Assembly (NCBI GenBank): GCA_050506795.1
Contig: JBJHCF010000008.1
Coordinates: forward strand, 1-64,000
Length of the DNA: 64,000 nucleotides
Direction of reading: 5' to 3'
From: Opitutia bacterium
GTDB lineage: Bacteria; Verrucomicrobiota; Verrucomicrobiia; Opitutales; T3Sed10-336
The notes under the pieces were generated by a model. The model did no database searches. It was not told the origin of the DNA and worked only from the letters and a program-made list of their open reading frames with translations. Of this stretch, positions 1-11,212 are shown piece by piece. Within the stretch, counting starts at the first letter, position 1. Each line of letters starts with the position of its first letter. The translations under genes and the position numbers were made by a program.

Positions 1-80
1 CAACGCCATGATATCACCGCTCACCAGTGGCTGGTTTTGAATCGACCATAGGTGGCGGGTTTTGAACCGACCGGTGACAG

Positions 81-101
81 CCGGCTAAAGCACGGCGCTA
101 C
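81..101 (-). repeat. GTAG-type REP-like element (one of about 10 copies in the window)
   Basis: CCGGCTAAAGCACGGCGCTAC, identical to the copy at 20400-20420. The reverse complement starts with GTAG. Confidence 0.75.
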
Positions 102-140
102 GGTGAAATAAATCCGAAGCCCGGACGTCGAATCTTGTAT

Positions 141-908
141 ATGACAACTGAAGCCGCCGTTCAGAATAACAAGCGAAGCAATCTTATCAAACTGTCCGCC
201 CTGGCGCTGGTGCTGGTCGGACTCTTTTTGCTGAGCCGTTTCCTGCCGGTCGGCGAGTGGCTCCAGGCATTCAACCGTTGGGTCGGAGAGCTCGGAGTGG
301 CCGGAGTGGCCCTGTACGCGGTGATTTACGCTGTCGCCACGGTACTGATGCTTCCCGGCGCGATTTTCACTCTGGGCGCGGGATTCGCTTTTGGGCTCGG
401 CTGGGGATTCCTGGCAGTGGTGGTCGGCGCAACGACCGGCGCCGCGCTGGCGTTTCTCATTGGGCGCTTCCTGGCGCGCGACAAGATCGAAGCCATGACC
501 CGCGACCAGCCGAAGTTTCGCGCCCTGGATAACGCCATTGGCAGGAAAGGCGCCCGTCTGATTTTTCTCCTGCGCCTCAGCCCGTTGATCCCCTTCAATT
601 TAAGCAACTTCTTCTACGGCCTCACCGCAGTGCGGTTCTGGCCGTACGTCCTGGCAAGCGGTATCGGTATGATGCCGGGAATCCTGGTCTATGTTTACCT
701 CGGCACCCTCGGGCGCGCCGGGCTGGAAACGGCGGCGGGAGCCGATACCGAACGCACGCCGTTGGAATGGACGCTGATGGTGGTCGGATTGATCGCGACG
801 GTGGCGGTCACGATCTGGATCTCCAAAATCGCCCGTCAGGCCCTGCGGGAAGCGGGGGAAAACGGAGTTACGACGGAGGTCGGTCTCGTCCAACAGGGCA
901 GAGATTAA
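141..908 (+). CDS. TVP38/TMEM64 (VTT/DedA, SNARE-associated-Golgi family) membrane protein
   Basis: Multi-TM hydrophobic protein with family motifs 'LPGAIFTLGAGFAFG', 'GRFLAR' and 'LLRLSPLIPFNLSNF'. ATG at 141. Confidence 0.9.
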   Translation: MTTEAAVQNNKRSNLIKLSALALVLVGLFLLSRFLPVGEWLQAFNRWVGELGVAGVALYAVIYAVATVLMLPGAIFTLGAGFAFGLGWGFLAVVVGATTGAALAFLIGRFLARDKIEAMTRDQPKFRALDNAIGRKGARLIFLLRLSPLIPFNLSNFFYGLTAVRFWPYVLASGIGMMPGILVYVYLGTLGRAGLETAAGADTERTPLEWTLMVVGLIATVAVTIWISKIARQALREAGENGVTTEVGLVQQGRD

Positions 909-1001
909 TGCGCCCCAGGAAGGCATGTCCTGTCCGCGCCGGCTTCTCTGTCGCATTCGCGCTGCGAGGGTCAAAACGGGTAAGCAGCGTACTTTCGCCG
1001 T

Positions 1002-1742
1002 TCATTTGCCCTTATCATTCCTCCTGCAACGGAATACCTCCACACCGACCATTTCATCGTTTTCGTCGAATTCGATCAGCAGGGGAAGTTTTTCGAGTAC
1101 GGCTTTGGGCAATTCGGAAACAAACGCCCCGGAAGGAGGTCGCTCGCCTGGTTTGTGCTTTTTCAGTTTCAGGTGAATCTGTAAATCGCCGAACGAACAC
1201 TCGACGCCGCCTTCTTCAATATCGACCAACCGCTCCGCGGCAACGGCAATGTCGAGATCGCCCTTGGCGAGCTGCTTCGAGCGGTAAGCGTTGTGGGCAT
1301 CAACCTTCGCTTTCGCGCCGTGAAACCGGATCGAATCTTCGAGAATCGAAGCTTGCTTCTTGTTGCGAAAGGTCTTCGTCGAGTTGGGCTTCACCCTGCT
1401 TCCAATGCGCTTCTGTCCATTCCGCGGCAACAAGAGCCAACGCTCCTCCACATCCCGCACGGTTCCGCACACCTTGCATGCCGTCCGCCCCTCTCGGGTT
1501 TTTCGCCAGCCTGCACGGTGCGGACACTGTAGGGACAGAAACTCCCACAATTCTCCGAGTTGCTGATAAATCTCTCCCATCCGCTCTCCCTCCTCGCCTT
1601 TGTCCAACGATGGATGCTTCGACACAAAGTCCATACTGAGAAAGAGCTGCTTGAACCGGGATTTGAGGTTGTCCTGTTTCGCTTTCATTGGGGGCGGAGA
1701 TGTTTCAGGTTTTGAAAGATTCGTTCGGTTGATGTTAGACAC
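1002..1742 (-). CDS. Hypothetical protein downstream of the RT, with a Zn-ribbon-like C-x-H...CxxC and a DUF2283-like C-terminus; candidate retron effector/accessory protein
   Basis: GTG start overlaps the RT stop (GGTGTCTAA); alternative ATG at 1688. Motifs 'QCPH...ACKVCG' and 'LLIEFDENDEMVGVEV'. Confidence 0.6.
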   Translation of the reverse strand: MSNINRTNLSKPETSPPPMKAKQDNLKSRFKQLFLSMDFVSKHPSLDKGEEGERMGEIYQQLGELWEFLSLQCPHRAGWRKTREGRTACKVCGTVRDVEERWLLLPRNGQKRIGSRVKPNSTKTFRNKKQASILEDSIRFHGAKAKVDAHNAYRSKQLAKGDLDIAVAAERLVDIEEGGVECSFGDLQIHLKLKKHKPGERPPSGAFVSELPKAVLEKLPLLIEFDENDEMVGVEVFRCRRNDKGK

Positions 1743-2595
1743 CGACTCCGGCGCGAGCTGATTTGCGTGTACTTAAAAGATTCCTGTTTCGGCGTTCAAT
1801 CGCACGAATGTAGCGGCGATATCCGATGGCCTGCGGAGAGTTGTGACCGTGTGTCAAAACACACTGCTGGAACTTGTCCAATGTTTTCTGGGCCGGTTTG
1901 ATCGAGTGGTTCACCCTCAGTCCCAGGTTTTCCTGTTCGTCGGAGCATTTCATTACCTTCGTCTTGCTGCCTTGAATCGCGAAGCCGTGGCGGCGAAAAA
2001 TCTTTTGGGCAAGCTTCAGTGTTCTTGCAAGTCCGATTGGGCCGCTGATGGTTAGGTCATCCACCCATAGCGTGAGATTACACCGTGGATCGATCGCTTT
2101 CAGTGCCTTCTTCAGGTCCAGAAACGCTGGCTCGATCGCCAGTCGAGCCAATCCCGGGCTCGACGGAGCTCCTTGTGGCAGAGCGTTTTTCCAAGTGACG
2201 ATCCTGACAAAATCCGATGCCATCTCCGGATCGTCCAATATCCGCTCGAAAATTCGAATCAACATCCGCCTTCTTACGGTTGGAAAGAAGTCGGCCAGAT
2301 CCATTGCAATGACAACCCGTTTTTCGACATGTGGGATCATCGCATCAACCGTCGAAGTCTTCGGCCTTCCCGCAATTTCCGGCGTGACCGAGATCTTGTT
2401 TATCTCGTCTTTCAACAGAGTCTGAACGGTTTTGAGTTTCCCGGAAGGTGCACTTATGACGCGATGCCCTCCTCCGGATTTGGGTTCGGCCCAGGTCCGA
2501 TACTGTCGGGGAGCACGCTTGGCCAGATTAGAGAACGCCTCGACGGTCATAGCGCACTTGCTGGCAATGAATGAGTTAACGCAGATTTTTTGCAT
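1735..2595 (-). CDS. Retron-like reverse transcriptase (RT domain only, ~270-290 aa)
   Basis: RT motifs 'PKSGGGHRVISAP', 'MDLADFFPTV', 'LPQGAPSSP' and catalytic 'WVDDLTISG'. Region X-like 'DAMIPH' and region Y-like 'QENLGLRV'. Start is 2595 (MQKI) or 2550 (ATGA-coupled to the upstream ORF). Confidence 0.9.
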   Translation of the reverse strand: MQKICVNSFIASKCAMTVEAFSNLAKRAPRQYRTWAEPKSGGGHRVISAPSGKLKTVQTLLKDEINKISVTPEIAGRPKTSTVDAMIPHVEKRVVIAMDLADFFPTVRRRMLIRIFERILDDPEMASDFVRIVTWKNALPQGAPSSPGLARLAIEPAFLDLKKALKAIDPRCNLTLWVDDLTISGPIGLARTLKLAQKIFRRHGFAIQGSKTKVMKCSDEQENLGLRVNHSIKPAQKTLDKFQQCVLTHGHNSPQAIGYRRYIRAIERRNRNLLSTRKSARAGVGV

Positions 2596-2993
2596 GGTAA
2601 CTTTCGGTAGAGAGAAATCAGGGGAAGGAAACCATTGTACCACAGCCATACTACAACACGTTCGAAAAGCGCCCTTGCGTTTCGCACGAGACGCTTTACG
2701 GACCTCAAGCCAAGCCAATCCAGAATCTTTGCCCGGTTGGCTTCGACCTGCAGCCGATCAATTACGCCGGTCAAAATCGCTCGGTCTTCCCGTGCCAGAG
2801 TCGACACGAGAAAGAGCCGTTCCAGATTTTGAACCGCGTCTTGATATTGGCCTGTCGACGTTGCCTTGACAGCTGAGTCCAACAGTCCCTTCCCCCTATA
2901 TCCTCCTCCCAGCCTTCGACTGACGCTCTTCAAATCATGAAGCGCCAGATCCACCCTGGGAGAGAATCGAGGGTGACCTATTTCCGTTTTCAT
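2547..2993 (-). CDS. Hypothetical 148-aa basic protein, first gene of the RT operon
   Basis: Strong RBS AAAGGAGG-taaat-ATG (MKTEIG...). Its stop forms an ATGA overlap with an in-frame RT ATG at 2550. Confidence 0.7.
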   Translation of the reverse strand: MKTEIGHPRFSPRVDLALHDLKSVSRRLGGGYRGKGLLDSAVKATSTGQYQDAVQNLERLFLVSTLAREDRAILTGVIDRLQVEANRAKILDWLGLRSVKRLVRNARALFERVVVWLWYNGFLPLISLYRKLPCKKSALTHSLPASAL

Positions 2994-3018
2994 ATTTACC
3001 TCCTTTCTGTTTAACGGA

Positions 3019-3240
3019 TTTGAAAAAGAAAGCGTCTCTGGGAGAATCAGCCATGCCCTTTCTAGGATCGCCGACTCAACGGGAGAGCACTTCGCCTTTG
3101 GACCCCACGTTTCGCGGGCCACGAGACCGGACCCAGGCCCGATAATTCCGGGTCTGAGACTTGCCTCGATCTTGTGCCGCCGGGCAATGCCGACGGGAGG
3201 AGGTGCAGCGGATGGTCATCCGTGACGATTCTTTCAAAGA
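3019..3240 (-). ncRNA. Putative structured RT-associated ncRNA (msr/msd-like leader)
   Basis: Terminal inverted arms 3224-3238 and 3019-3036 enclose about 5 hairpins (3209-3222, 3177-3196, 3130-3154, 3104-3118, 3057-3066). It lies between a predicted promoter and the RBS of the RT operon. Confidence 0.55.
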
Positions 3241-3248
3241 ACGAAATG

Positions 3249-3277
3249 ATTTGAGCAGATTTTGGAGATCTTGTCAA
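3249..3277 (-). promoter_or_regulatory. Putative sigma70 promoter for the ncRNA/RT operon
   Basis: Minus strand TTGACA (3277-3272), 17 nt, TCAAAT (3254-3249). The predicted TSS near 3242 is just 5' of the inverted arm. Confidence 0.45.
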
Positions 3278-3340
3278 CCATGTTTTGCTCTTGACGCACC
3301 ACGATATAACAAATGTCATAAAGCCTTAAAGAAATTAAAT

Positions 3341-6300
3341 GTGATAGGTAAAGGTCAAGAAAAAGAGCAATTTGCAGGCCGGCTTAAACAAATACGAGGT
3401 CGGCTGAGTCTCACACAACAAGCTCTAGCTGAAGAGCTTGGAGTATCATTTGCCACTGTCAATCGTTGGGAAAATCGCCAAACGAGGCCTTCTCGCATTG
3501 TCCTGGAGAAGATAGCGGCCCTTGAGGCGAGAACCCGCTCGGACCGTGCACATTCTTCCGGGGAGTCGGTTTCCCCGCATCCGGTCAATCTCGACTTTTC
3601 CGCAAATTCCGAGGTTATCCGGACGATCACGGAGGGGGAGAGGCTCGGTTTCGGTCATGCCGCGAATCCGGCCTTCGCCACAGAGATTTCCCGAATCGAC
3701 CCCCTGCCGCACCAGCGGATTGCCGTGTATCAAAAAATGCTCGCGAGTGAGCGCCTGCGATTTCTGCTCGCTGACGACGCAGGCGCCGGAAAAACGATTA
3801 TGACCGGTCTCTATCTCCGTGAAATGCTTTCACGGCGCCTGATCCGGCGGATTCTGATCGTTCCACCCGCGGGACTTGTCGGAAACTGGCACAGCGAGAT
3901 GGAGAAGCTTTTCAGCCTCGGCTTCACCATCGTTTCCGGAAACGACGCAGCAAAGGGTAATCCTTTTGAGGGGGAGGATTCGGATCGTGTCATCGTCAGC
4001 GTCGACAGCTTGAGGGGCAAGAGGCTCTTTGGTTGGCTTGCCCACGAATCCACCATACCCTATGACCTTGTCGTCTTTGACGAAGCTCACAAATTGTCTG
4101 CCGACCAGCAGGCGGATTTTCGTATCAAGAAGACCAGCCGTTACGAACTGGCGGAGGCGCTGGCCGGGGTAAGCGATTGTTCGGAACAGTGGAAGCTTCC
4201 CTGGAGCACGAACCACCTGCTCTTGCTGACTGCCACCCCCCACATGGGCAAGGATTATCCCTACTACGCGCTCTGGCGATTGCTTCTGCCCAATCAGCTT
4301 ACGACGATCGAGGCGTTCAACGAGTTCTCAAAATCCGTCCGGGAGCACCATTTCATTCGTCGCACCAAGGAGGAAATGGTCCATTTGGATGGCCGCCCCC
4401 TCTACCCGACACGGAGATGCGATACTCTTGGATTCGACCTCACCGCCGGCGACGAAGGCGAGCAGGTTCTCTACGAAAAAACAACCGCTTACCTAAAGCA
4501 TGTTTACAACAAAGCCAAGATGCTGAATCGCTCGGCCGCGAAGCTGGCTATGAGCGTATTCCAGCGCCGACTTGCCAGCTCGACCTATGCGCTGTTGCGT
4601 TCGTTCGAACGGCGGATGGAAAAACTGGACGCACTCATCGAGCAGCTTCAGCAGGGCGTTCTCTCCGTGGAGGAGATGAATCGCCTCCAAAAGAAGCGAT
4701 TTGCCGTCGACTCGGATGTCTTCGAGTCAAAAACCGCCGACGAGGAAATCGAAGGTGAATCGGAGGAAAACGAGGTCGGTGAAGTCGAGCTTCTTGGTTA
4801 TTTTGTCGCCGCATCCCTTCGGGATTTGCTGACCGAGCGTGAAGAAGTAAAGACCCTGCTCGATCTGGCAAAAGCGGTTCACGAGACAGGCATGGAGTCC
4901 AAGTTTGAGAAACTGCGGGAGATTTTGATCGAACCCTCCTACGAAAACGAAAAACTCATCATCTTTACCGAGCACAAAGATACCCTCGACTACCTGATCC
5001 GCCGGCTGAACGGCCTGGGATACACAGGCAAGGTGGCCCAGATTCACGGGGGCATGCACTACACGGAACGAACGGCGGAAGTCGAAAGGTTCCGCAGGGA
5101 CCACGATGACGGCGGGGCGCGTTTTATGGTTTGTACCGATGCGGCGGCAGAGGGGATCAACCTCCAGTTCTGCTGGATCATGATCAACTACGACATCCCC
5201 TGGAATCCCGCTCGTCTGGAACAACGCATGGGGAGGATTCACCGCTACGGTCAAAAACATGATCCCGTCGTCATCCTCAATCTTGTCGCCCCCAGGACCC
5301 GGGAGGGACGCGTATTGAAAACGCTCCTCGAAAAGTTGGAGCGCATTCGGAAACAGCTCAATTCGGACAAGGTGTTCGATGCCATTGGGCGGGTTTTCGA
5401 GGGTGTTTCGATCCGCGACTACATGGAACGGATCGTCGAAACCGGCGACGCCGACGCGGTCCAGTCCGATATAGAGGGCAAACTGACCAAGGAACAGATC
5501 GAAGCGTTAATGGTAAAGGAAGCTACCCTTTACGGCAGCGGTGGCGATGTGAAATCGAAGTTGCCGGAATTGCGAGCGGCGATGGATCGTGAAACCTACT
5601 TCAAACTTCTTCCGGGCTATGTTCGCAGCTATTTCGAAAAGGCGGCGCCCCTCGCGGGCCTCCGGATTCACGATGACGGATCCGGCACTTTCACTTTGAG
5701 TCCGGATCCAAAGCAAAGAAGTGCTGTGCAAGACCGGATATTCTCCGAAGCGAATGCGGAAGAACAAAAGTTTGCCTTCGTGAAGCCGAAAGAGGGAGAG
5801 CACGTTGTCTGGCTGCATCCGGGTGAGCCCATCTTTGAGAACTTCCGCGAGGATTTTAAAAGGGCTCACCACCAAGATTCCCTACGCGGCGGCGTGTTTA
5901 TCGACCCGAATGCCGCCGCCCCCTATTTGTTTCATCTGGCCCGTATTACGATTTTCCGGAGCGCGGATCCCGAGGTGCTGGAACTGGCGCGTGAGGAGAC
6001 CATTGAATTCCGGCTGGTCGGACTGAAGCAATACGAAGGTTCCGAAATAGAAATCTGTCCGCTGGAACACCTTCTCTTGTTGCGGGGAACACGCGGAATC
6101 CCGAAAGGGGCTCAGATTCTGGCGGCGGAGGCCAAGAATTTGCGTGAACAGGCAAGCGCATACCTCATGGAGCGAAACGTCCGCGAGTTGGCGCTCTCGC
6201 ACAAGAGGCGTCTTGAGGCCACGTTGGCCGAAAGGGCCGGAACGATCGAACGCGGCTTCGCTTTTCAGACGGCCGAACTGGCCAAGACACGGGCCAAGCT

Positions 6301-6913
6301 TTCCAAGAAGGCCCGCGAAGGAAACAAGTCCGCCCAAATCGACCTGGAGGTCATCAAGAAGCGTCAGCGCACTAAGGGCGAACGTCGCGAACAAGCGCTT
6401 CGCGCCATCCGTCGCGAACCGGCTTTGATCAAATGCGCTCCTGTTGAATTCATTACCCATGCGCTCGCGGTTCCATCGAACGATCCCGTCGAACGGGAAC
6501 GGCACGAGGCCGATGTCGAACAGGTCGCGATGAACCTCGCCTGGGCCTACGAGAAATCATCCGGCGCCATCGTTAAAGATGTCCACACCCCGCCGCTGGC
6601 CCGGGCCGCCGGGTTGGGTGACAATCCGGGATTCGACCTCCTTGCCACCTATCCGAACGGAGAAGAACGCTGCATCGAAGTCAAAGGGCGGGCTCGGACG
6701 GGTGACGTAGAGGTGACCCGCAACGAATGGGCGAAGGCCTGCAACCTGGGCGACCGGTACTGGCTTTACGTCGTTTACAATTGCGCGACTCCGGCGCCCC
6801 AGATGGAACGCGTACAGGATCCGTTTCTTAACATTCTCGCGAAAACCAAAGGAAGCCTGCTGATCGACTCCAGGTCCGTGATCGACGCTTCCATCAATGA
6901 GGCTCCAAAATGA
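3341..6913 (+). CDS. XRE-HTH / SNF2-family helicase / DUF3883 (PD-(D/E)xK-like) fusion
   Basis: HTH 'LTQQALAEELGVSFATVNRWEN'; Walker A 'LLADDAGAGKT'; 'VFDEAH'; 'LLLTATPH'; 'EGINLQ'; 'WNPARLEQRMGRIHRYGQ'; C-terminal 'GFDL...RCIEVKG'. Probable GTG start at 3341. Confidence 0.92.
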   Translation: MIGKGQEKEQFAGRLKQIRGRLSLTQQALAEELGVSFATVNRWENRQTRPSRIVLEKIAALEARTRSDRAHSSGESVSPHPVNLDFSANSEVIRTITEGERLGFGHAANPAFATEISRIDPLPHQRIAVYQKMLASERLRFLLADDAGAGKTIMTGLYLREMLSRRLIRRILIVPPAGLVGNWHSEMEKLFSLGFTIVSGNDAAKGNPFEGEDSDRVIVSVDSLRGKRLFGWLAHESTIPYDLVVFDEAHKLSADQQADFRIKKTSRYELAEALAGVSDCSEQWKLPWSTNHLLLLTATPHMGKDYPYYALWRLLLPNQLTTIEAFNEFSKSVREHHFIRRTKEEMVHLDGRPLYPTRRCDTLGFDLTAGDEGEQVLYEKTTAYLKHVYNKAKMLNRSAAKLAMSVFQRRLASSTYALLRSFERRMEKLDALIEQLQQGVLSVEEMNRLQKKRFAVDSDVFESKTADEEIEGESEENEVGEVELLGYFVAASLRDLLTEREEVKTLLDLAKAVHETGMESKFEKLREILIEPSYENEKLIIFTEHKDTLDYLIRRLNGLGYTGKVAQIHGGMHYTERTAEVERFRRDHDDGGARFMVCTDAAAEGINLQFCWIMINYDIPWNPARLEQRMGRIHRYGQKHDPVVILNLVAPRTREGRVLKTLLEKLERIRKQLNSDKVFDAIGRVFEGVSIRDYMERIVETGDADAVQSDIEGKLTKEQIEALMVKEATLYGSGGDVKSKLPELRAAMDRETYFKLLPGYVRSYFEKAAPLAGLRIHDDGSGTFTLSPDPKQRSAVQDRIFSEANAEEQKFAFVKPKEGEHVVWLHPGEPIFENFREDFKRAHHQDSLRGGVFIDPNAAAPYLFHLARITIFRSADPEVLELAREETIEFRLVGLKQYEGSEIEICPLEHLLLLRGTRGIPKGAQILAAEAKNLREQASAYLMERNVRELALSHKRRLEATLAERAGTIERGFAFQTAELAKTRAKLSKKAREGNKSAQIDLEVIKKRQRTKGERREQALRAIRREPALIKCAPVEFITHALAVPSNDPVERERHEADVEQVAMNLAWAYEKSSGAIVKDVHTPPLARAAGLGDNPGFDLLATYPNGEERCIEVKGRARTGDVEVTRNEWAKACNLGDRYWLYVVYNCATPAPQMERVQDPFLNILAKTKGSLLIDSRSVIDASINEAPK

Positions 6914-6937
6914 GTTTCCCGGCTGTCAGTAAAGGAG

Positions 6938-7834
6938 GTGGCTGTGTATTTTTTCTATTTTGATGAAAGCGGCTCGCGCGATCCAAAGGTCGAGGGTCAG
7001 GATAAGGGAGGGTCAAATTTCGCCAAGGACCACCTTTATGTGCTGACCGCCTTGAGCCTCTACGAGAAGAAGTGGGCCGCGTTCGATCAAGAAATCAGTG
7101 CGCTCAAACTTCGCTTGAGAACGAAACTCTACCGCGAGAAACAAATCGAACTGCCATCGCTTGCCGATTGCGAAGTCAAATCCACGAGCCTGCGCCTGAG
7201 CAAATCACCAGGGAAGAAGGGGTATAGCCCGTTTGTCCACAACCTCGACGACTCGGAAAAGACCACGCTTTCCGAGTTGTTCTTTTCGCAGTTGGCCAAA
7301 CACAACATGCGGCTGTTCGCCGTTGTGATCGATAAACGAAAGCTCCGCGACCACATGACCGGAGAGCAGATGCATAAGAAGGCCTACGAGTTGTTGCTTG
7401 AGCGGATCGAACACTACCTCTGGGAGTACTACCCGAAGCACGGCGGGTTGATTGTGATGGACGATACGCAGAAGCAACTGAATCACGCAGTCGCCATGAA
7501 ACACGCCTGGTTCCAGCGGGACGGGAACGCGAATCTCCGCTTCAAACACATTATCGAATACCCGTTTTTCACCGACAGTCGGCTTTCAAACGGCGTTCAA
7601 CTCGCCGATTTGTGCAGTTACAACATCTACCGGGCCTTTCGAAGCGGGGACTTCACCTATCCCTACTTTGAGAAACTGCTGCCGCATTTTTACCGGTCCC
7701 GGCGCACGGGCGACGGCAAACTCGATGGTCTCAAAGTATTTCCGGATGATTCTGAATTGATCCAATTCGCCGCCGACGGATACCGGGAATTCCAGGCTCT
7801 GGACACGAAAAAGCCCGCCGAGGAGGCGGGCTGA
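6938..7834 (+). CDS. DUF3800 family protein (predicted RNase H-like fold)
   Basis: N-terminal 'FYFDESG' and C-terminal 'DSRLSNGVQLADLCSY'. RBS AAGGAG overlaps the GTG region. Confidence 0.85.
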   Translation: MAVYFFYFDESGSRDPKVEGQDKGGSNFAKDHLYVLTALSLYEKKWAAFDQEISALKLRLRTKLYREKQIELPSLADCEVKSTSLRLSKSPGKKGYSPFVHNLDDSEKTTLSELFFSQLAKHNMRLFAVVIDKRKLRDHMTGEQMHKKAYELLLERIEHYLWEYYPKHGGLIVMDDTQKQLNHAVAMKHAWFQRDGNANLRFKHIIEYPFFTDSRLSNGVQLADLCSYNIYRAFRSGDFTYPYFEKLLPHFYRSRRTGDGKLDGLKVFPDDSELIQFAADGYREFQALDTKKPAEEAG

Positions 7835-7889
7835 AAAAAATGAAACTGGGCTGGGATGACCATATCAAGCCTGCGTGAGGCACCCAGTT
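7812..7889 (+). ncRNA. Possible structured RNA / terminator 3' of the DUF3800 gene
   Basis: Hairpin AGCCCGCC-GAGGA-GGCGGGCT (7812-7832), then stem AACTGGG (7844-7850)/CCCAGTT (7883-7889) enclosing GCCT-GCGTG-AGGC. Confidence 0.4.
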
Positions 7890-7939
7890 ATGCTCGAAAG
7901 TTCGTCTATTTCTCGGTCATAGTCAAGAAAGATTTATCC

Positions 7940-10900
7940 ATGAACGACACACCCAGGCTCATCGAACACGCATTCCCGCTCGAACAGGCGTCACTTAACT
8001 CGGTGCACGAGAAGAACGTCCGTCACGGCCACATCTCGACGCTACACATCTGGCCGGCTCGGCGGCCGCTCGCGGCCTGCCGGGCCGCCCTCCTCGCCAC
8101 GCTTCTCCCGGATCCCGGGGATGAAAAGAAGCGACAGGAACTCTGCGAAAAGATCGGCGGAAAGTTCGTTGAGGTGAGAAAGCGCAAGAAGAAGCCCGAC
8201 GGAAGCATAGAGGAGCGCGTCGCCCGGGAGACGCACGGAGGCGTGCTCCACTGGCACGGGCAATCCCGGACTCCGGAGGAATGGAAGTCCGCCCGGCAGC
8301 ATGAGACGGACCTGGAATGGTTTCGCCAGGAAATCCGCAAGGTGTACGGGCGCGCGCCCAAAGTGCTCGACCCCTTCGCCGGGGGCGGCGCCATTCCACT
8401 CGAGGCGATGCGCCTCGGTTGCGAAACGACCGCCGTAGACATCAACCCGGTCGCCTGGTTCATCCTCAAGTGTACGCTGGAATACCCGCAGAAGCTGGCC
8501 GGGCAGCGGAAGCGTCTGCCCGACTTCGCGCTGAAGGACCGGGGGTTCATGGAAGACTATTTCAAGGCGATTCCCGGCAGCGATGGGCGTCCCAAGTACC
8601 GCACCCGAAAACAGTTGGAGGACCGTCTGCGTCAACACTTCGGCGAATCCCCAGCCAAACGCGGAAAGGCCCGCCAGGAGCAGGCCGAGTTCAACGACGA
8701 CCATCCGGACTGGAGCGAAGAAGACCACGGGCACGGCGAGGAACTGGAGGCCGATCTCGCCTGGCACGTCCGCGCCTGGGGGCACTGGGTACTGGCCGAA
8801 GCGCGCAAGGAACTTGCGCCGTTCTACCCGACCTACGCCGATTGGGAACCGCTGAAACCCGGACAAAAGCAGTACGAGAAACAACCCATGCGCCTCGTGC
8901 CCCTCAAGGAAGACGGCACACTCAACATGGACGCCCTCAACGGAAACCTCGGCGACGATTATCTGGAGGACAAAACCAATCCCCGCTGGGTGGCGAAGCC
9001 CACCGTCGCGTACCTCTGGGCTCGGACCGTCCAATGCAAGGACTGCGGCGCCACCGTCCCGCTTCTTAAAACCCGCTGGCTCTGCAAAAAGGATCGCAAG
9101 CGCGTGATGCTGACCATGGAATCGTTGGGGCGGGCAAATGGCGTTAACTTCGGGATTGAGAAGAATGTTCCCTCCAAAGGTGGCAACGCGGCGCAGAAAC
9201 GGGAACACGATAAAAAGATCGGAGCCGGGACTATGTCGCGGTCGGGTGCGACTTGTCCTTGTTGTGGAACCACACACACAATGGAAGACATTAAGGTATA
9301 CGGTTCTCAGAGCGAATCCGGCGAATGCTTAACCGTGGTAGTAACTGATGGTCCACACGGAAAAGAATACCGTTTGCCAACCAAACATGAAATACCAGCG
9401 TCACGGAATTTGGAGAATCTATTAGGTCAAATTTATCAAGTAATCCCACGTCATTTACCCAGTGAAAAAATCGTTGAAGATGCCAAAAGGAACACTTGGT
9501 GCGTTCAGCATGGAATAACTGAGTTTAATAAACTTTTCACCAACCGCCAACTGTTAGCCCTCGGTATTTTTGCGAAACATATTCGAACAATTGAATCGGA
9601 CTTCCATCCTGAATTAATAAGAAGTTATTTGGTTTGTGTATTTGGTAAACTTCTCGATTATGAAAACAAATGTACCTCTTGGTATTCACAGAACGAACAA
9701 ATAAGCCACCTGTTTAAACGTTTCGCGTTGCCTATGCTATGGGACTACACAGAAGCATCGCCGATCGGAGGTGCTTCTGGGAGTTGGAAATCAATGCTAA
9801 ACTCAGTAACCAAGGCTGTCGATACAGCTGTAAAATATTCTGCTGATCTTGAAGTGCCCTGCATTGAGAATAGATCGGCGATCTCATTTCAGTATCAGAA
9901 CTTCGATCTAATTATCACTGATCCACCGTATTACGATGCCATCGGGTATGCCGCTGTAATGGATTTCTTTTATGTTTGGCTAGCGCGATTAATAGGCGAC
10001 TACGACAAAAATTATGCTAGCGTATTTTCTGATCAACTATCTCCGAAGTGGAATGAGAACACGAAAGACGGAGAGCTTGTTGATGATGCGAGTCGACACG
10101 GAAATGACAAGGAAGCTTCGAAGAAGGCGTACGAAAATGGAATGGCATTAGTATTCAGGAATTGCTGCGAATCACTCGTTCCATCAGGACGATTTGTTGT
10201 TGTATTTGCAAACAAGAATCCTGATGCATGGGAGACTTTAGTATCTGCAATTATTAGAGCCGGCTTTGTCGTAGATGGAAGTTGGCCAATCCAAACGGAG
10301 ATGGCAAATCGTGCTCGTGCACACAGCTCATCCGCTCTCGCCTCCTCCGTCTGGCTCGTCTGCAAAAAGCGCCCTACTACCGCCCGCCCCGGCTGGGACA
10401 ACACGGTGCTCAACGAGATGCGTTCTAACATCACCGAAAAACTTCGCAACTTCTGGGATGCCGGGATTCGCGGCCCAGACTTTGTGTGGGCGGCGACGGG
10501 ACCCGCGCTGGAGGCTTACAGCAAACACCCCATCGTCAAGAAGGCGGATGAACCGGGCAAATTGATGACGGTGTCCGACTTTCTCGTCCACGCCCGGCGT
10601 ATGGTCGTCGATTTTGTGGTGGGACAGGTGCTCACGGGCCGGGAGAGCGATGAGGCCGATCTTTCGGCCGCGGACCGCTTGGACGAGCAAACCGCCTACT
10701 ACCTGCTTCACCGGAACGATTTCGGCTTCAATGAAGCGCCGACCGGGCCGGTTATTCTCTATGCGGTTTCGTGCGGGATGACCGATGGCGAGCTGGTCGA
10801 TACCTGGAGTCTTCTGGCCCGGGTGGGTAAAAAGTCCGCCGACGGCGATGAGGAGGACGACGATCCGGATTCCGATTCGGATACCGAAGCGGATTCAGGG

Positions 10901-11212
10901 AGCAAGGTAAAGTTGAAGACGTGGCAACAACGCAATCACAAGAGCCTCGGACTGGAGGCACCTAAAGGGCGAACAGTTCCGTTGATCGACCGCGTTCACC
11001 GGCTCATGCATCTCTGGAAGGCGGGGGATCTCACCAAGGTGAACGATTACATCGACGAGCACGGACTCCGTCGCAACGAACTCTTCAAGCGAGTGGTGCA
11101 GTCCCTGATCGAACTCTCGGAGGGGGGAAGCAGCGAACGGGCGCTCCTCGAAAGCATCAGCAACCACATTGGCGCAAAAGGCGCTATTGCACAGCAGACG
11201 CTGGACTACTAG
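7940..11212 (+). CDS. DUF1156-domain amino (N6-adenine-type) DNA methyltransferase with Zn ribbons
   Basis: 'LHIWPARRPLAACRA' (DUF1156), SAM-binding 'VLDPFAGGGAIPLEA', catalytic 'TDPPYYD', CxxC pairs. ATG at 7940. Confidence 0.92.
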   Translation: MNDTPRLIEHAFPLEQASLNSVHEKNVRHGHISTLHIWPARRPLAACRAALLATLLPDPGDEKKRQELCEKIGGKFVEVRKRKKKPDGSIEERVARETHGGVLHWHGQSRTPEEWKSARQHETDLEWFRQEIRKVYGRAPKVLDPFAGGGAIPLEAMRLGCETTAVDINPVAWFILKCTLEYPQKLAGQRKRLPDFALKDRGFMEDYFKAIPGSDGRPKYRTRKQLEDRLRQHFGESPAKRGKARQEQAEFNDDHPDWSEEDHGHGEELEADLAWHVRAWGHWVLAEARKELAPFYPTYADWEPLKPGQKQYEKQPMRLVPLKEDGTLNMDALNGNLGDDYLEDKTNPRWVAKPTVAYLWARTVQCKDCGATVPLLKTRWLCKKDRKRVMLTMESLGRANGVNFGIEKNVPSKGGNAAQKREHDKKIGAGTMSRSGATCPCCGTTHTMEDIKVYGSQSESGECLTVVVTDGPHGKEYRLPTKHEIPASRNLENLLGQIYQVIPRHLPSEKIVEDAKRNTWCVQHGITEFNKLFTNRQLLALGIFAKHIRTIESDFHPELIRSYLVCVFGKLLDYENKCTSWYSQNEQISHLFKRFALPMLWDYTEASPIGGASGSWKSMLNSVTKAVDTAVKYSADLEVPCIENRSAISFQYQNFDLIITDPPYYDAIGYAAVMDFFYVWLARLIGDYDKNYASVFSDQLSPKWNENTKDGELVDDASRHGNDKEASKKAYENGMALVFRNCCESLVPSGRFVVVFANKNPDAWETLVSAIIRAGFVVDGSWPIQTEMANRARAHSSSALASSVWLVCKKRPTTARPGWDNTVLNEMRSNITEKLRNFWDAGIRGPDFVWAATGPALEAYSKHPIVKKADEPGKLMTVSDFLVHARRMVVDFVVGQVLTGRESDEADLSAADRLDEQTAYYLLHRNDFGFNEAPTGPVILYAVSCGMTDGELVDTWSLLARVGKKSADGDEEDDDPDSDSDTEADSGSKVKLKTWQQRNHKSLGLEAPKGRTVPLIDRVHRLMHLWKAGDLTKVNDYIDEHGLRRNELFKRVVQSLIELSEGGSSERALLESISNHIGAKGAIAQQTLDY

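Follow-up and report, generated by a model that had tools for sequence, protein, structure and literature searches.

The leader RNA and its operon

We analyzed a 64,000-nucleotide (nt) stretch of an Opitutia bacterium genome (assembly GCA_050506795.1, contig JBJHCF010000008.1, positions 1 to 64,000; here, the window). On its minus strand, a structured leader is followed by open reading frames (ORFs) for a 148-amino-acid (aa) protein, a 271-aa reverse transcriptase (RT) and a 246-aa protein. We consider it probable that the leader (3242-2991, minus strand) is the leader, or non-coding RNA (ncRNA), of a two-gene relative of the Type VI retrons that lacks a helix-turn-helix (HTH) gene. By analogy with Type VI systems, it is most likely the equivalent of the non-coding part of their ncRNA, or 'hybrid RNA', in a retron-like defense operon. 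Comparison of leader sequences shows that it belongs to an RNA family located upstream of a rare RT clade and of Type VI-like neighbors of that clade.

The family set comprises 10 leaders, that of the window and those of nine loci among 214 scanned loci with the RT on the plus strand. Eight of these (the clade leaders) accompany RTs of one clade: the window, L001 (Opitutales, 50% RT identity), L081 and L082 (metagenomic), L002 (PVC group), L003 and L004 (Aminicenantales), and L005 (same as L162; Kiritimatiellaeota). The other two are from the metagenomic loci L091 (1400-3366) and L095 (1-1745), where genes for a small protein, an XRE-type HTH protein and the RT follow one another in the canonical Type VI order. 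A first-pass annotation of this DNA had proposed a multi-hairpin RNA upstream of the RT operon, and this RNA is real and conserved, with its signature in all 10 leaders. A structured region is present at 3019-3240, the extent given there, but the element runs slightly beyond it, from about 3242 to about 2991 (roughly 250 nt). The elements of the leader and the two genes after it are as follows (SL, stem-loop; SD, Shine-Dalgarno sequence; AF2, AlphaFold2).

3272..3277, minus strand: -35-like hexamer TTGACA, read directly; a perfect -35
3249..3254, minus strand: -10-like hexamer TCAAAT, read directly; 17-nt spacer from TTGACA, with TG at 3257-3256, one base upstream
3233..3242, minus strand: conserved 5' word GUUCUUUGAA, exact in 6 of the 8 clade leaders
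3238-3224, minus strand: 5' arm of the first-pass annotation, UUUGAAAGAAUCGUC, read directly
3209..3222, minus strand: SL1, hairpin CGGAU-GACC-AUCCG, 5 bp, just upstream of the anti-SD
3197..3204, minus strand: anti-SD ACCUCCUC, complement of the SD
3177..3196, minus strand: SL2, hairpin CCGUCGG-CAUUGC-CCGGCGG, 7 bp, directly 3' of the anti-SD; -11.1 kcal/mol
3167..3176, minus strand: A-rich linker CACAAGAUCG, after SL2
3122..3168, minus strand: SL3, 47-nt stem-loop, variable core; -23.8 kcal/mol; holds GACCCGG...CUGGGUC
3100..3120, minus strand: SL4, short hairpin around CCCGCG-AAA-CGUGGG; -9.7 kcal/mol
3030..3092, minus strand: SL5, 63-nt imperfect terminal hairpin; -25.4 kcal/mol for the 69-nt stretch folded; CCU-AGAA-AGG is its tip
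3019..3036, minus strand: 3' arm of the first-pass annotation, GACGCUUUCUUUUUCAAA, able to pair with 3238-3224 as an alternative conformer
2998..3008, minus strand: extended SD AGAAAGGAGGU, 10 nt after the end of the 3' arm; ATG at 2993
2547..2993, minus strand: 148-aa accessory protein ORF; ATG at 2993; no Pfam, PADLOC or NCBIfam match; all-helical AF2 model
1735..2550, minus strand: 271-aa retron-type RT; RVT_1; start overlaps the accessory stop (ATGA), read directly

The five hairpins named in the first-pass annotation all lie on the minus strand where it had placed them. The 3' arm does end just before the ribosome binding site (RBS), 10 nt ahead of the SD (3008-2998). The annotation was wrong in seeing no long hairpin, because imperfect hairpins of 47 nt (3168-3122) and 63 nt (3092-3030) are present; the latter, SL5, is a candidate template stem. 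The two promoter hexamers and their 17-nt spacer, which it had also noted, occur just upstream of the 5' arm. A promoter scan, which requires an A at position 2 of the second hexamer, passes over this site. Given the upstream TG and the perfect -35, a TTGACA-N17-TCAAAT promoter is plausible from the sequence, and transcription starting about 7 nt past the -10 would begin at the G of the conserved word. TTGACA with a 16-17-nt spacer is also found upstream of the word in L003, L004, L091, L095, L001 and L005.

An RNA family upstream of related reverse transcriptases

Members of the family share one order of elements. The 5' part consists of the promoter, the word GUUCUUUGAA, a small hairpin, a pyrimidine anti-SD and SL2. 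The 3' part consists of an A-rich linker often ending in AUCG, a variable hairpin core, a terminal hairpin, a short linker and an SD of the form AGAAAGGAGGU(G/A)A. This signature is found in only 9 of the 214 RT loci, and other rows of a loose scan are without the remaining elements. The word followed by an anti-SD has a single occurrence in the window's own genome. The clade leaders are 249-435 nt long, with variable cores of 110-300 nt, and at the seven clade loci other than the window the accessory ORF is in each case preceded by 400 nt or more of non-coding DNA. The word takes the forms GUUCUCUGAA in L003 and GUUCUUUCAC in L005 (one or two changes from GUUCUUUGAA), GGUCUUUGAA in L091 and GCUCUUUGAA in L095.

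For statistics, the 10 sequences were counted as nine lineages (L003 and L004 as one) and p values were combined by Fisher's method; local folds were tested against mononucleotide shuffles, which preserve mononucleotide content only. All 10 leaders carry, at +32 to +49 from the word, a perfect Watson-Crick complement of 6-8 nt to the 15-nt segment around the SD (combined p 2.5e-7). In the window this is a 7-nt complement to AGGAGGU, 39 nt past the word (p 0.008). The anti-SD is CCUCCUC, CCUCCUUUCUC or CCUUUCUCC in the eight clade leaders. On the SD side, 8 of the 10 leaders have AGAAAGGAGG, and L081 has AGAGAGGAGG. L095 differs on both sides: its SD is GAGGUGC (with GAGGUG in place of the common word) and its anti-SD is GCACCUC.

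A hairpin stands at the place of SL2 in every leader (p 2.1e-5). The stems are unrelated in sequence (CCGUCGG, CCAUUAGC, CCAGGCUC, CAAUCGG, UACAGC, CUGC, CCGCC and CCCG), and the leader comparison thus shows SL2 as a covarying hairpin directly after the anti-SD. MAFFT followed by RNAalifold predicted no pairs in the anti-SD/SL2 segment, because MAFFT cannot align unrelated stems. The linker after SL2 includes ...AAAUCG or AAGUCG in the window, L001, L081, L003 and L004. The terminal hairpin region (p 1.5e-6) and a hairpin immediately 5' of the word (p 3.6e-5) also exceed shuffles. The conserved word, the positional anti-SD, the covarying SL2 and the terminal hairpin all emerged from this comparison of leaders.

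The leaders of the window and L001 are 249 and 250 nt long, with the same hairpin order and unrelated cores. One L001 hairpin matches SL3 in size and place and is unrelated to it in sequence, and a 25-nt hairpin occupies the position of SL4. The L091 and L095 leaders comprise a hairpin, G(G/C)UCUUUGAA, SL1, an anti-SD, SL2 and an extended or matching SD. They connect the window's lineage with Type VI.

Short contigs of a near relative (about 3-7 differences per 100 bases) were recovered from run X2, a soda-lake metagenome. They cover 2500-3092 only, stopping before the 5' half of the leader. Within 3010-3092, the relative has four substitutions, three at unpaired bases and one that changes a G-C to a G-U pair. 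An insertion extends its SD to GGAGGUGAUGA.

Predicted long-range pairing and the 16S rRNA tail

The 16S rRNA gene of this genome ends in ...GGAUCACCUCCUUUCUAAGGA (contig C25, about 31176, minus strand), and the leader segment CACCUCCU (3205-3198) is an 8-nt copy of this tail. The SD of the window matches 11 nt of the tail, an SD length made possible by the long 16S tail of this genome. The 10-nt SD word AGAAAGGAGG has eight copies in the 4.9-Mb genome, one of which is the 16S gene itself. In copying the 16S tail, the leader would use the ribosome's own sequence to compete with it for an SD of unusual length. From the fold models and from its conserved position, this mimic is predicted to pair with the SD and to hide the RBS of the accessory gene.

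The minimum free energy (MFE) fold of 3019-3240 closes via the 5' and 3' arms (-85.5 kcal/mol), through a 9-bp core, UUUGAAAGA/UUUUUCAAA. Thus the a1/a2-like arms of the first-pass annotation are present and close that fold, yet the closing helix conserved in the family is the anti-SD:SD helix instead. When the folded RNA extends through the SD (3242 to 2980), this helix outcompetes them, with pair probabilities of 0.80-0.94 (0.94 being the highest) against about 0.05 for the arms; the forced folds have -92.5 and -90.8 kcal/mol, respectively. Because the arms and the anti-SD:SD helix cross, a nested fold can contain only one of the two. The anti-SD:SD helix is in the MFE fold of 6 of the 8 clade leaders, and 5.0-10.5 pairs are expected between the two segments in seven of them. 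Arm-like pairing without gaps, some 26 nt ahead of the ATG, was found only in the window, in L082 (7 bp) and partly in L001. The arms may represent an alternative 'SD-free' conformer in the window's branch rather than the closing helix of the family.

We also looked for other long-range partners and for a priming site. No reverse complement of the 5' word is conserved within 2.5 kb downstream. Neither candidate 5' strand is followed immediately by a conserved G; the invariant Gs open the 5' word and, in most leaders, close the ...AUCG after SL2.

The reverse transcriptase

On sequence, the window RT belongs to the retron RT group, and it clusters with retron RTs in a phylogeny. All PADLOC matches listed (the best 25 of 45) are retron RT models, with RT_VI (8e-40) and RT_III-A (1.6e-39) nearly equal. 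Pfam identifies RVT_1 (3.6e-19), and the best NCBIfam match is retron_St85_RT (5.6e-29, below the curated cutoff of 235 bits). RT_VI is also the best model for L005 and L002, RT_III-A for L081, L082, L003 and L004, and RT_X for L001.

In a FastTree phylogeny of 83 RTs, with type labels taken from the best PADLOC match among the matches listed, the window, the seven other clade loci and P0002-P0011 form one clade (support 100, branch length 0.73). L091, labeled RT_VI, is sister to this clade at support 83. L017 and L035 (both RT_VI), L126, L089 and L095 fall in the same 24-row group (support 93). In this tree, the clade is sister to RT_VI-labeled rows and is not nested among them.

Relatives of the window RT are few: two at about 80% identity, followed by ten at 30-43%. 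An RT of the clade is present in one other of 401 genomes of the phylum; among 101 relatives, it was found only in the genome behind L001 and in one partial copy. A tblastn search of plasmids with the L091 RT returned nothing above 33% identity. Pattern scans of viral contigs recovered no RT relatives in 233 loci, among the matches listed, and a scan of viral proteins recovered no clade member. One candidate relative, L231 (G455:C102), was rejected as a different retron type. This locus, in a genome of the same order, encodes a 306-aa RT with YADD and VTG motifs, preceded by a protein of 350-470 aa with several hydrophobic segments.

The accessory protein

The 148-aa ORF is the only gene between the window leader and the RT, and it is not of the Cro/C1 HTH type. 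Pfam, PADLOC and NCBIfam assign it to no family, and no Pfam HTH was identified in any of the eight clade members. A homologous ORF of 130-175 aa lies directly before the RT or overlaps it at all eight clade loci, and is fused to it in L002. The clade ORFs share 19-26% identity with that of the window and an invariant G..LL. The family is rare: a profile search of 1.84 billion representatives found 70 members at E<=0.001 and 37 at <=1e-10, mostly of 120-170 aa.

The AF2 model (8-row alignment) is all helical, with a mean predicted local distance difference test (pLDDT) score of 74.9 and about 90 for residues 11-90. Helices span residues 12-28, 35-46, 50-63 and 68-121, and the long helix runs into a hydrophobic stretch, VVVWLWYNGFLPLISLY. 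The model thus suggests an N-terminal part of four helices, with a hydrophobic helix at the C terminus. Foldseek found no match in the PDB at E<=0.001, and the weak rows are generic helical bundles. By analogy with Type VI systems, the protein is probably toxic.

Fusions of the accessory protein to the RT occur in L002 (836-2053, a single 405-aa protein) and in 4 of the 70 representatives (P0121, P0171, P0181 and P0175; about 404 aa, with RVT_1 in the C-terminal half). These fusions argue that the two proteins work together in a physical partnership.

Relationship to known systems

In the account of Mestre et al. (2020, PMC7736814), Type VI retrons combine a clade-3 RT with a Cro/C1 HTH protein and small three-helix proteins. 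Before two preprints of 2025-2026, Type VI was the sole retron type without a recognized ncRNA. For Retron-Vpa2, the first describes a hybrid RNA that carries both the template and the small-protein gene, with the RBS and start codon masked in stem-loops (Zhang et al., 2025, 10.1101/2025.10.22.683967). Its multicopy single-stranded DNA (msDNA) builds up on triggering, is required for translation and derepresses the toxin, which requires a hydrophobic C-terminal helix (same source). For the cl2075 lineage, the second locates the ncRNA no more than about 280 nt from the small-protein start. This ncRNA has terminal inverted repeats, its basal stem sequesters the RBS, a conserved stem-loop of 5 bp immediately precedes the 5' repeat, and a long internal stem-loop has a variable center (Garcia-Rodriguez et al., 2026, 10.64898/2026.04.27.721009). 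About 78% of its Type VI entries encode an HTH protein, so that HTH-less entries exist in that set. As presented in these texts, toxin control is translational in Retron-Vpa2 (Zhang et al., 2025) and post-translational in Retron-Sen3 (Garcia-Rodriguez et al., 2026). Library searches on Type VI retrons and on RBS masking in retrons found no works on the subject other than these three.

The layout of the window leader differs from that of classical msr-msd RNAs, as the first-pass annotation had recognized, and fits the descriptions of Type VI in the main texts of the two preprints. As in Vpa2 and Sen3, the genes for a small protein and a short retron-type RT are preceded by a multi-hairpin leader, in which a basal long-range stem is predicted to contain the RBS of the small protein. 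A small stem-loop immediately precedes the 5' strand of this stem, and the internal hairpin region is variable. The protein encoded between ncRNA and RT combines a helical bundle with a C-terminal helix that is hydrophobic. In the tree, the clade RTs and RT_VI-labeled RTs are nearest neighbors, and the leader signature is common to the small protein-HTH-RT loci L091 and L095.

Several features distinguish the window's lineage from Type VI. It is without a Cro/C1 HTH gene. Its accessory proteins are of 130-175 aa rather than the 75-95 aa of published small proteins, and are fused to the RT in some relatives. Its RTs form a separate clade (support 100) that the RT_VI, RT_III-A and RT_X models match about equally. 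There is no inverted repeat 3' of the accessory gene, which overlaps the start of the RT gene. Direct repeats of 7 nt like those of Vpa2, sought between the linker after SL2 and the linker before the SD, did not exceed shuffles in any of the 10 leaders. The 5' word GUUCUUUGAA and the 16S-tail mimic were set against the main texts of the preprints only, and the supplements may already show them.

Classical retrons such as Ec86 (Retron-Eco1) have an msr-msd RNA, and the rule for the position of the branching G, known from Ec86, places it at the end of a1. The window leader resembles such RNAs in lying directly upstream of a retron-type RT, and in having 5' hairpins and a longer hairpin near the 3' end of the domain. 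It differs in that no conserved a1/a2 duplex and no branching G could be identified, in its several core hairpins in place of one long msd stem, and in a closing helix that uses the SD of the next gene.

Anti-SD leader elements block initiation by cis pairing of the SD with a strand that contains CCUCC. The same pairing is predicted here. Unlike in such riboregulators, the masking strand precedes the SD by 200-390 nt, and the domain that it encloses is large and structured. The leader is also tied to an RT, and its unusually long SD matches 11 nt of the 16S tail.

Genomic neighborhood

The genes adjacent to the two-gene unit are as follows.

1002..1742, minus strand: 246-aa ORF 3' of the RT; weak DUF6255 match, 1.7e-05 (Pfam)
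Starting at 3161 (TTG) as called, plus strand: HmaA-like SNF2 helicase; PADLOC 4.3e-158; N-terminal XRE HTH, C-terminal NOV_C
6938-7834, plus strand: DUF3800 protein, a gene of the Hma-like operon
Within 3161-11212, plus strand: HmaB-like DUF1156 methyltransferase; 1.2e-116

No tblastn relative of the 246-aa ORF was identified at any related locus. Thus its membership in the core of the system is doubtful, and it is probably not a core gene. It contains a zinc-ribbon-like CPH...CKVCG stretch.

The three plus-strand genes (3161-11212), which are divergent from the leader, make up an Hma-like defense operon. Their presence beside the retron-like operon indicates that the neighborhood is a defense island. 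The TTG start called for the helicase (3161) overlaps the leader on the opposite strand and probably lies too far upstream. With the HTH beginning only at residue 70 of the ORF, a GTG near 3320 is the more probable start.

An Rfam scan of 1-10000 found no match in the leader region at E<=1. Its sole row is a sub-threshold Trp_leader match (E 0.2) at 7805-7873 on the minus strand. The sequence there, between the DUF3800 and methyltransferase genes, is a GC-rich hairpin (GCCCGCC...GGCGGGCUUUUU) followed by a U run and resembles an intrinsic terminator.

Weight of the evidence and alternative explanations

A number of observations weigh against assigning the leader to a relative of the Type VI retrons. 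The sample is small (10 sequences, nine lineages), and the stems were taken from each sequence's own fold. The fold energy of the leader is unremarkable (z -1.76, equaled by 9 of 200 dinucleotide shuffles), so folding energy alone is not above chance. The probability that GGAGG is paired with anything is not above that in shuffled leaders at the 1-in-20 level in any of the eight sequences; it is the specific partner and its position that carry the case. The anti-SD:SD pairs expected in L005 number only 2.2. SL1 is not significant against shuffles (Fisher p 0.16), though small hairpins are found there in most relatives, and the window, like L001 and L005, has no hairpin upstream of the word. 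Beyond its seeds, a four-seed covariance model found only L081 (E 0.16) and L082 (0.23), beside a chance row. The best PADLOC type is split within the clade (RT_VI in 3 of 8, RT_III-A in 4 and RT_X in 1), and the clade RTs score 1e-40 to 1e-54, compared with 1e-100 to 1e-190 for typed retron RTs. The tree was built with FastTree only, and the sister join to L091 has a support of 83 on a long branch. That no conserved a1/a2 duplex and no branching G beside a closing helix were found, as considered next, also counts here.

We regard it as rather unlikely that the RNA is a purely cis-acting translational leader. Such a leader would only regulate the accessory gene or the operon by masking the SD, for instance as an autoregulatory, temperature-sensitive or ligand-sensitive switch, and would never be reverse transcribed, with the RT template located elsewhere or the RT acting in another way. 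All that was shown does concern SD masking and conserved hairpins, neither a priming G nor a conserved a1/a2 duplex was found, and the two conformers of the window RNA are nearly isoenergetic. However, the RNA occurs strictly with retron-type RTs (10 of 10 leaders, and none of the other RT loci among the 214), and retron RTs use the adjacent ncRNA as template, as reported for Type VI in the main text of Zhang et al. (2025, 10.1101/2025.10.22.683967). In addition, a core of 110-300 nt made of stable hairpins exceeds what SD masking needs. A classical msr-msd RNA is improbable. It would take the arms (3238-3224/3036-3019) as a1/a2, the G after the 5' arm as the priming residue and the hairpins as msr and msd. 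The arm-closed fold of 3019-3240 with its 9-bp core, the similar pairing in L082 and partly in L001, and the cost of only 1.7 kcal/mol over the optimum when the arms are forced would suit it, but the duplex is not conserved. In RNAduplex comparisons of the 5' leader with the 3' region, 14 of 200 shuffles reach the window and 8 of 200 reach L081, and the other six of the eight leaders do no better than shuffles. The arms also have a probability of just 0.05 with the SD included, and they cross the conserved anti-SD:SD helix.

We give almost no credence to the idea that a GC-rich divergent promoter region, which also serves the Hma-like helicase operon, folds in this way by chance and has no RNA function. 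The modest z score, the location between divergent operons and the overlap with the TTG-start ORF on the plus strand would be expected in that case. Against it, the same layout is found upstream of related RTs in other phyla without an Hma neighbor, the combined shuffle tests give 2e-5 to 2.5e-7, and the helicase probably starts near 3320.

Proposed mechanism and implications

At rest, the 16S-tail mimic would pair with the extended SD, closing the domain and hiding the RBS of the accessory gene, so that translation would be off. By analogy with Vpa2 and Sen3, the RT may bind the 5' part of the RNA. Upon phage infection, it would copy a core hairpin (SL5 or SL3) into single-stranded DNA. Synthesis of this complementary DNA, or the competing fold of the 5' and 3' arms, could open the anti-SD:SD helix. 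The hydrophobic-tailed protein would then be made and would halt the infected cell. As the lineage has no HTH gene, masking by the RNA, perhaps together with the larger N-terminal bundle of the accessory protein, must replace the role of the HTH protein.

A more specific combination of these ideas is possible, and we advance it tentatively. In this minimal HTH-less lineage, the in-cis copy of the 16S tail, 200-390 nt upstream, would be the sole 'antitoxin' for a membrane-active effector, and reverse transcription of the core would free the SD. The extra N-terminal bundle of the effector would dock on the RT, GUUCUUUGAA would be the RT recognition or priming site, and the arm fold would be the 'on' state of a two-state switch.

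With this lineage included, the RNA family reaches into Verrucomicrobiota, Kiritimatiellota and Aminicenantes-like genomes. Further members can be sought by simple sequence marks, namely the extended SD, the 5' word and a 16S-tail mimic at +32 to +49. The operon is compact, with two genes and a leader of about 250 nt, and suits direct tests in E. coli. By dropping the HTH protein and keeping the RNA, the lineage would offer a natural minimal system in which to ask whether RBS masking alone can restrain a retron toxin.

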